A DNA stretch of 64,000 bases from Escherichia phage vB_EcoM-VpaE1 (KM657822); one strand, 5' to 3'. Shown: positions 27,276 to 27,358, numbered from the stretch's first letter. Made by a program: numbers and translations. The notes: generated from the sequence alone by a model not told the origin.

Positions 27276-27358
27276 GAATTATAGTATGGGACGATGTTAA
27301 GACTCTAAGGCATGAGCAACGGCTTCCAACACCGTTTCAAAGGGGTTCAACTCCTCCG
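27276..27358 (+). tRNA. atypical tRNA-like gene (anticodon region contains TCCA; possibly Trp CCA)
   Basis: Perfect 7-bp acceptor atgggac/gtcccat plus CCA and a T-arm, but 83 nt with extra residues in the D region and an apparent 9-nt anticodon loop cttccaaca closed by aacgg/ccgtt. Confidence 0.4.

Follow-up and report, generated by a model that had tools for sequence, protein, structure and literature searches.

The window analysed here, the whole stretch of 64,000 nucleotides from Escherichia phage vB_EcoM-VpaE1 (KM657822), belongs to a Felix O1-like myovirus of the genus Felixounavirus (Ounavirinae) and carries a cluster of 25 tRNA genes called by ARAGORN at positions 25483-30320, all on the plus strand and together specific for 19 amino acids. 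Tryptophan is the sole amino acid for which no tRNA is called in this cluster. The clusters of Felix O1 and Pectobacterium phage Wc4 likewise serve 19 amino acids, tryptophan alone being absent. Rfam confirms 23 of the 25 tRNAs and reports nothing else there at its gathering thresholds. The cluster is directly preceded by an ORF for 471 amino acids (23902-25317, plus strand) with matches to DUF2828 (E = 1.7e-29) and DUF7788 (E = 1.3e-43), and ORFs embedded in it match DUF7338 (28403-28960) and DUF7217 (29349-30146). In Felix O1, three HNH ORFs are situated between the tRNA genes. [quoted passage not shown] In the genome paper of Felix O1, 22 tRNAs are listed, and rows 1-13 of its tRNA table hold no entry at the locus described below (PMC3185647). 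The RefSeq annotation of the whole Felix O1 cluster does not contain a tRNA-Trp either.

Within the cluster, we found an 83-nt tRNA-like element with the anticodon CCA at 27286-27368 on the plus strand (Table 1). Divided into its parts, it reads AUGGGAC / GAUGUUAAG / ACUC-UAAGGCAU-GAGC / AACGG-C-UUCCAAC-A-CCGUU / UCAA / AGGGG-UUCAACU-CCUCC / GUCCCAU / G / CCA. This is the sequence of the original prediction, which had placed it about 10 nt too low, at 27276-27358. The perfect acceptor stem described there is indeed present (AUGGGAC/GUCCCAU, 7 bp, followed by G73 and encoded CCA at 27365-27368), and the anticodon region folds as it had been written, with aacgg at 27318-27322, cttccaaca at 27323-27331, ccgtt at 27332-27336 and CCA at 27326-27328. 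The T arm had been called canonical. This holds for its loop UUCAACU, which fits UUCRANY, and not for its stem, which is made up of four Watson-Crick/GU pairs and an invariant A·C opposition. Extra residues between acceptor and anticodon arm do exist, but they number seven rather than about six and all reside in the connector between acceptor and D arm. The 700 nt around the element are 96-98% identical to many Felixounavirus genomes from Escherichia, Salmonella and Shigella phages. No ORF of at least 45 amino acids overlaps the element on either strand, and a protein-coding reading was thus rejected.

Table 1. The tRNA-Trp(CCA)-like element, its parts and associated features. Positions are those of the window unless another record is named.
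Feature	Position	Strand	Remarks
Whole non-canonical tRNA-Trp(CCA)-like gene	27286-27368	+	83 nt, CCA encoded; ARAGORN -mt, covariation in four helices
Acceptor stem, 5' strand AUGGGAC	27286-27292	+	pairs with 27358-27364; 7/7 Watson-Crick
Connector GAUGUUAAG	27293-27301	+	9 nt versus the usual 2 (positions 8-9); invariant in 16/16 distinct orthologs
D arm: A·C opposition and CUC/GAG stem, 8-nt loop UAAGGCAU with GG	27302-27317	+	covariation
Anticodon arm: AACGG/CCGUU, C27323·A27331, inner loop UUCCAAC	27318-27336	+	anticodon CCA 27326-27328
Variable loop UCAA	27337-27340	+	invariant; with U27336 a 5-nt class-I variable region
T arm: A·C opposition and GGGG/CCUC, loop UUCAACU (U54 U55 C56 A57 A58)	27341-27357	+	pair 2 covaries GC/UA
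Acceptor stem, 3' strand GUCCCAU, G73 (27365), encoded CCA (27366-27368)	27358-27368	+	GCCA invariant
Upstream block	27240-27285	+	conserved; common to phages with either Trp allele in the slot
Alternative cassette: 71-nt tRNA-Trp(cca) and 134-aa HNH-type ORF	wV8 (L001) 1553-2042; phiSUSP1 (L002) 1551-2040
Annotated tRNA-Trp, 76 nt	Erwinia phage phiEa21-4 (L100) 24578-24653		between tRNA-Gly and tRNA-Thr

Positions 1-7 and 10-76 of an ordinary 76-nt class-I tRNA(CCA) can all be assigned in the element. By counting, 27302-27368 comprises 67 nt and corresponds exactly to positions 10-76, the D loop having 8 nt and the variable loop 5 nt, and the sole anomaly in length is therefore the presence of nine nucleotides in place of U8-N9. 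Held against a canonical tRNA, the 7-bp acceptor stem, the discriminator base and the 3' CCA are all present, and so is a D arm with a 3-bp CUC/GAG stem and GG in its loop that is backed by covariation. The linker between acceptor and D arm, on the other hand, is 9 nt long in all 16 orthologs and does not conform to U8-N9, and U8, A14 and A21 of the canonical tertiary core are out of place. The anticodon helix can be counted in two ways: in the canonical count, pairs 26-44 and 27-30/40-43 are followed by a C31·A39 mismatch and a 7-nt loop with U33 and A37, while in the thermodynamic count five Watson-Crick pairs enclose a 9-nt loop. The loop thus looks 9 nt long because C31 and A39 are opposed and unpaired. 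A·C or C·A oppositions close the D (A10·C25), the anticodon (C31·A39) and the T helix (A49·C65). An alternative 8/4 arrangement of acceptor and T stem is possible, in which G27293 (G8) pairs with C27357 (C65), and RNAalifold predicts the G8 pair. Upon inspection, no conserved complementarity was found between the connector and the D loop, the variable loop or the T loop. The folding energy of the single sequence is unexceptional (z = -1.56).

ARAGORN calls the element neither with default settings nor with a slightly lowered threshold (-ps), and at very low thresholds it reports only unrelated registers at this place. A search with relaxed settings had been proposed as a check; the metazoan-mitochondrial mode (-mt) returns an mtRNA-Trp(cca) at 27287-27364. 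Upon any of four overlapping 6-nt deletions in the connector, default ARAGORN calls a 77-nt tRNA-Trp(cca) with an anticodon stem running from A27-U43 to C31·A39 and the loop UUCCAAC. The earlier suggestion of a tRNA with a small insertion is thereby supported, with the remainder of the molecule fitting positions 10-76, and the extra 7 nt between the first two arms explain why gene finders miss the element. With Rfam, a 251-nt search at E values up to 10 yielded no model of clan CL00001 at threshold. The best match from this clan is tRNA-Sec with 16.9 bits (E = 0.67, gathering score 47), and as this is the only CL00001 match kept, RF00005 scores below 16.9 bits (own threshold 29). That the tRNA-Sec model provides the best though weak match is due to the six-layer anticodon helix. 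Identity with tRNA-Sec (RF01852) was rejected in view of the score of 16.9 versus 47 bits, the absence of a variable arm and an anticodon CCA instead of UCA. A tymovirus tRNA-like element and other Rfam families gave sub-threshold matches only, and a Y-RNA (YrlA)-like identity was dismissed for want of any Rfam match. An intron-containing tRNA was also discarded, as ARAGORN with -i and -io gave only implausible calls in other registers or on other strands; moreover, we know of no bacterial machinery for removing a 7-nt insert from the acceptor-D connector. A standard cloverleaf in a register missed by the original prediction was returned neither by ARAGORN nor by Rfam. When the 7-kb cluster was scanned for an acceptor stem combined with a T arm, the element emerged as the one well-formed candidate besides the known tRNAs, the few remaining matches combining the T arm of an already called tRNA with a 5' strand further away.

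The element is present in about 230 GenBank phage records from several genera and is 100% identical in Salmonella phage Felix O1 (AF320576, 26533-26615). Orthologs were gathered from GenBank phage records, from IMG/VR and by a metagenome scan anchored on the 3' half, which provided three useful variants (L106, L109 and L118). This resulted in 16 distinct orthologs from at least four phage lineages, i.e. Felixounavirus, Mooglevirus, Suspvirus, a Pectobacterium/Yersinia phage group and the divergent metagenomic contig L118, a set that is phylogenetically narrow in that it stems from one phage subfamily. An IMG/VR scan with GGGACGATGTTAAGA for more distant orthologs gave mostly chance matches, and a connector-independent pattern brought nothing new in IMG/VR.

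The comparison of orthologs, which had also been proposed as a check, speaks clearly for a structured RNA, with compensatory changes in all four helices across the 16 distinct sequences. In a MAFFT alignment of 12 sequences, 8 of the 22 pairs show changes on both sides. The covariation score of 0.325 compares with 0.142 +/- 0.019 in shuffled alignments and was reached by none of 500 shuffles, 86% of cells are paired as opposed to 76% in shuffles, and no compensatory pairs at all were left when the 3' partners were slid by 1-3 columns in either direction as a control. RNAalifold, run independently of our model, gives the same cloverleaf, in which the acceptor stem has 8 bp, the D stem 3 bp, the anticodon stem 5 bp (closing a 9-nt loop) and the T stem 4 bp. 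In a structural alignment made by hand for all 16 sequences, the anticodon stem occurs as AACGG/CCGUU, GACGG/CCGUU, GUAAG/CUUAC, GUAGG/CCUAC and ACUUG/CAAGU, four of its pairs featuring three to four pair types each. The D stem is found as CUC/GAG, CAC/GUG or CGU/ACG (middle pair UA/AU/GC, next pair CG/UA), while AU/GU/GC and UA/CG alternate at acceptor pairs 1 and 2 and GC or UA at pair 2 of the T stem. An alternative D stem, UGUU/AGCA with a 16-nt D loop, was rejected: one pair is broken in 5 of 12 sequences, and it also takes a base from a covarying anticodon-stem pair. Invariant in all 16 sequences are the connector GAUGUUAAG, the loop portion UCCAA, the variable loop UCAA, G73-CCA, the oppositions A10·C25 and A49·C65 and most of the T arm, although T-arm invariance is partly imposed by the search, since the metagenome sequences were picked by a pattern that fixes this arm. 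The inner anticodon loop follows the scheme YU-CCA-AM, in which U33, CCA and A37 do not vary, and at 31·39, C faces A in 14 sequences and another C in the remaining two. Stem-breaking substitutions are rare. One Felixounavirus variant has a single U·U in its T stem; the others concern the acceptor of the most divergent lineages, in which a U bulges out (Pectobacterium and Yersinia phages) or two pairs are mismatched (L118). The element is a real, conserved tRNA-like gene and more than a chance arrangement.

Several features point at tryptophan, namely the gap in the tRNA set, the identity elements, the occupation of an allelic slot and a C31·A39 opposition that is shared within the subfamily. 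In E. coli, C34, C35, A36 and G73 are major and A1:U72 and G5:C68 minor identity elements of tRNA-Trp, G73 being the major bacterial Trp discriminator (PMC12135181). Every one of these known E. coli elements is present in the window. C34, C35, A36, G73 and the G5:C68 pair occur in all 16 orthologs; pair 1 is A:U in nine of them, the window with A1:U72 included, G·U in four and G:C in three. In the co-crystal of E. coli TrpRS with its tRNA, the enzyme touches the anticodon and the acceptor arm alone (PMC12135181), and for this reason the altered D region need not block charging. Neither Felix O1 nor Pectobacterium phage Wc4 nor the cluster in the window contains another Trp tRNA. We thus assign a probability of roughly 65% to the reading that the element represents a functional, non-canonical tRNA-Trp of the phage's own; most likely, it is the very tryptophan tRNA that Felix O1-type phages reportedly lack.

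How such a tRNA would be transcribed, processed, charged and used in decoding we infer from the sequence. The gene is probably transcribed together with the tRNA genes on either side. The RNA could then be released by RNase P and 3' processing, because nothing is missing from the minihelix of acceptor and T arm, with its 12 stacked layers, or from the encoded GCCA end. The host TrpRS would then charge it via anticodon and acceptor arm, and the charged tRNA would decode UGG with its anticodon CCA. The 9-mer GAUGUUAAG presumably remodels the tertiary core beside the equally invariant variable loop. The acceptor/T stack reaches its 12 layers as 7+5 if A49·C65 is counted and as 8+4 if G8-C65 is, and the stack of D and anticodon arm amounts to 10 layers if C31·A39 stacks, compared to 4+1+5 in a normal tRNA. 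With normal layer counts, the distances relevant for RNase P, the CCA end, TrpRS, EF-Tu and the ribosome could be kept. Essentially every E. coli genome contains a single tRNA-Trp gene, which renders a phage-borne supply or backup plausible. Counting against a functional tRNA-Trp are the 9-nt connector, the three conserved mismatches closing helices, the displaced core bases, the imperfect acceptors in the divergent lineages and the unexceptional folding energy. To our knowledge, no functional tRNA has a 9-nt connector between acceptor and D stem.

The element can be set beside E. coli trpT as a canonical bacterial tRNA-Trp(CCA). The two share the CCA anticodon, C/U32, U33, A37, G73, A1:U72 and G5:C68 as well as a 5-nt variable loop, a UUCRA T loop and an encoded CCA, and the anticodon arm of most orthologs (CGGC-CUCCAAA-ACCG) differs from that of E. 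coli (CGGU-CUCCAAA-ACCG) solely at position 31. In contrast, the element is 83 instead of 76 nt long with a 9-nt connector for U8-N9, has A·C at 10·25 and 49·65, C·A at 31·39 and a D loop that begins and ends with U where trpT has A, and overall identity is only about 58-61%. Non-canonical arrangements as such occur in tRNA-Sec (8/5 or 9/4) and in allo-tRNAs (8/4 and 9/3), and tRNA-Pyl is likewise non-canonical. The element resembles these in that it can be read as 8/4 via G8-C65, but it lacks a long variable arm, a 6-bp D stem and a UCA or CUA anticodon, and we know of no member of these three families with a 9-nt acceptor-D connector. The unpaired 31·39 is seen in 267 bacterial tRNA-Trp(CCA) genes that have been termed 'unpinned at the bottom' and have a loop that is 2 nt longer (PMC13092985). 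Unlike the element, those genes have standard bodies and are found by tRNAscan-SE; phages were outside that survey, in which UGA read-through was shown only for the top-unpinned class (27-43) and not for the bottom-unpinned one (PMC13092985). The Hirsh suppressor (tRNA-Trp G24A) and A9C variants also combine an altered D arm or core with an unchanged anticodon (PMC13092985), but they are point mutants selected for UGA suppression, while there is no sign that the element is used for UGA read-through. Bacterial precedents exist for the anticodon-loop feature, whereas none is known to us for the 9-nt connector.

Homology of wV8, phiSUSP1 and others to the window breaks off precisely at 27285 and sets in again directly behind the element. 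A different tRNA-Trp(cca) of 71 nt, followed by an HNH ORF, occupies this slot in 23 other Ounavirinae records. In this allele, the connector is a single nucleotide, the D arm is minimal and U31 pairs normally with A39; the allele reaches 32.6 bits with RF00005, which is above threshold, and is labelled tRNA-Trp in several records. It shares subfamily, slot, anticodon and G73 with the element. The phiSUSP1 copy is missed by default ARAGORN and found at -ps90. The 71-nt allele is absent from the window, and the 83-nt form is absent from those 71-nt carriers that were checked (wV8, phiSUSP1, FSL SP-107, Seyj1-1 and VpaE1_ev78); the two alleles thus appear to be mutually exclusive. The replacement at the slot is precise, which means that two unrelated sequences with the same anticodon occupy one position, and the swap of the cassette looks like an allele replacement driven by a homing endonuclease. 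A further tRNA-Trp is annotated in Erwinia phage phiEa21-4, elsewhere in the tRNA cluster. It has the same C31·A39, anticodon and G73 as the element, but it is accepted by software and its D arm is normal. Its anticodon stem features only three Watson-Crick pairs with mismatches U27·C43 and C31·A39, and CCA is not encoded. Both the 71-nt type and the phiEa21-4 tRNA show about 50% identity to the window element and, apart from the miss by default ARAGORN in phiSUSP1, are found by standard tools. All three types of Trp tRNA in the Ounavirinae are structurally aberrant.

The block upstream of the element contains promoter-like sequences, either TTTACA(27245)-17-TAAGCT or TTGAGA(27254)-17-AATTAT, and phiSUSP1 has TTGACA at the same place. 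A consensus scan of the block performed no better than with shuffled sequences, and we regard the block as a putative promoter. Further upstream, at 27185-27236, the motif GGAGGUGRUCUGUAUCUC is followed by a short hairpin. The same combination is found in phiEa21-4 (L100, ~24410-24450) and L118 (~1240-1275); it lies ~50-100 nt upstream of the Trp element or of a tRNA block and is present even in distant Ounavirinae lineages. Its possible roles include those of a processing site, a small RNA and a regulatory element.

Apart from a functional tRNA-Trp, it is conceivable, though in our view unlikely, that the element is a stable tRNA mimic that does not decode. Its target would be a host defence nuclease that attacks tRNAs, or some other factor that binds tRNAs, against which it would act as decoy, sponge or antidote, and the 9-mer would be its functional handle. 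An invariant connector in the midst of drifting stems would fit this idea, as would the imperfect acceptors of the Pectobacterium/Yersinia and L118 lineages and the presence of further odd tRNA-like RNAs in Ounavirinae clusters. Host defences are indeed known to cut tRNAs in the D loop, the anticodon loop and the acceptor stem, and phage tRNAs counter them (PMC12916289 and work cited there). A decoy would, however, need neither the full Trp identity set nor U33, A37 and the CCA anticodon, the element is the only gene with a CCA anticodon in an otherwise complete set, and a near-canonical tRNA-Trp is interchangeable with it in the same slot. In addition, we know of no tRNA-Trp-specific defence nuclease of enterobacteria, which also counts against a mimic.

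A more far-reaching reading is that of a deliberately re-engineered tRNA-Trp body. The invariant connector and the A·C oppositions at the helix ends would then make up a phage-specific tRNA-Trp with a remodelled core, providing either a Trp supply that is immune to a host tRNA-targeting nuclease or changed decoding such as that of near-cognate UGA, an effect that alterations of the core and the anticodon stem have in other tRNA-Trp(CCA) species. If so, the aberrant regions of the three Trp types would reflect selection and not drift. We consider this a tentative and rather doubtful extension.

Still less probable is a recoding tRNA that is charged with tryptophan and either reads near-cognate UGA by means of its altered core and unpaired stem base, in the manner of the Hirsh suppressor or the 4-bp-stem tRNA-Trp, or shifts the frame via a true 9-nt loop. 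What speaks for it is that A9C, G24A and unpairing of the anticodon stem raise UGA read-through by tRNA-Trp(CCA), also in E. coli (PMC13092985), and that all three Ounavirinae Trp tRNA types deviate in their core or anticodon-stem regions. On the other hand, the published read-through relates to unpairing at the top of the stem (27-43), the end opposite to 31·39 (PMC13092985). In the window, UGA is an ordinary stop codon that terminates 15 of 73 long ORFs, with the next in-frame stop following after a median of 3 codons, and there is no pair of long open frames split by an in-frame TGA. UGA recoding was rejected on the basis of this stop-codon use and the absence of such split genes. Frameshift suppressors of the sufD/sufJ type carry an extra loop nucleotide next to the anticodon and read quadruplets. 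In the element, by contrast, the extra bases are C31 and A39 (C in two sequences), which face each other and are not adjacent to the anticodon, and the inner 7 nt correspond to the standard Trp loop in all orthologs, which lends no support to the suggestion of a frameshift-suppressor-like tRNA that the original prediction had put forward.

That the element is the decaying pseudogene of a former tRNA-Trp with an acquired 7-nt insertion (a pseudo-tRNA had also been suggested originally), a possibility seemingly in line with its rejection by default gene finders, the mismatches at three helix ends and a tRNA label in none of the ~200 records inspected, is very improbable, because compensatory double changes at eight pairs largely refute decay, the supposed insertion is invariant, the mismatches are conserved and not random, the identity nucleotides do not vary, the element persists in ~230 genomes of several genera, and substitutions between lineages are overwhelmingly compensatory or located in loops while connector, UCCAA, G73 and T arm stay the same across genera.

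The 83-nt element carries no tRNA annotation in the ~200 GenBank rows that were inspected out of ~230 records. Several records annotate a 'hypothetical protein' across it, and in one a promoter adjoins it. The primary genome papers (PMC3185647 among them) do not mention it, and the literature searched on that question yielded no published description. Felix O1 is a classic typing phage for Salmonella, and its Ounavirinae relatives are widely sequenced as therapy and biocontrol phages. If the element works as a tRNA-Trp, the statement that these phages carry tRNAs for all amino acids but tryptophan is an annotation artefact and the set is complete, which would bear on models of why lytic phages carry full tRNA sets. 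It would also be an example from nature of a tRNA whose acceptor and D stems are joined by 9 nt rather than by U8-N9, and a test of how far the tertiary core can change while compatibility with RNase P, the CCA end, TrpRS, EF-Tu and the ribosome is kept. Furthermore, ARAGORN, tRNAscan-SE and the Rfam tRNA model (of which ARAGORN and Rfam were run here) would have a blind spot in such an element, and we suggest clade-specific covariance models for searching phage tRNA clusters.

The clusters of Ounavirinae contain other unusual RNAs. A tmRNA-like tag-coding stretch is located inside the cluster at 26833-26943 (plus strand) and also in phiEa21-4 (L100, ~24040-24165). In the window it reads AAUAAAU-GCA AAC GAC AAU GUU UUU CUG GCA GUA GCU UGA and encodes ANDNVFLAVA*, to be compared with the E. 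coli SsrA tag ANDENYALAA, and it is preceded by TTGACA-17-TATAGT. The frame is kept with synonymous changes in Felixounavirus, Mooglevirus and Suspvirus (ANDNAFLAVA) and in Erwinia phage phiEa21-4 (ANDAQFLAVA). The stretch scores 32.5 bits with Rfam tmRNA_permuted, under the threshold of 47. ARAGORN reports a 749-nt 'tmRNA*' with the same tag in Moogle but no tmRNA in the window, and the genome announcement of Moogle mentions an ssrA gene (PMC4319497).

At the place where the window has a normal tRNA-Arg(tct), wV8 (L001, ~1323-1403) contains an 82-nt tRNA-like sequence with an acceptor stem, a T arm, ACCA and the anticodon arm GCGGU-CUUCUAA-ACCGC (UCU). It has no D arm, bears an extra small hairpin in the variable region and is not called by ARAGORN in the modes tried. 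Long tRNA-like RNAs are encoded just downstream of tRNA-Arg in phiSUSP1 (L002, ~1256-1378, ~120 nt) and phiEa21-4 (L100, ~23876-24043, ~170 nt). They exhibit a 7-8-bp acceptor-like stem, a GGUUCGA T arm, a GCCA end and large internal inserts. No Rfam match was obtained for them, Y-RNA-like families included, and a Y-RNA (YrlA)-like identity was rejected for these RNAs as well. In Wc4 (L020/L123), a tRNA-Ser(tga)-like sequence resides just downstream of the Trp-like element and is neither annotated nor called by ARAGORN. It may be another divergent tRNA of that lineage, and its homolog in Yersinia phage P778 is called by ARAGORN.
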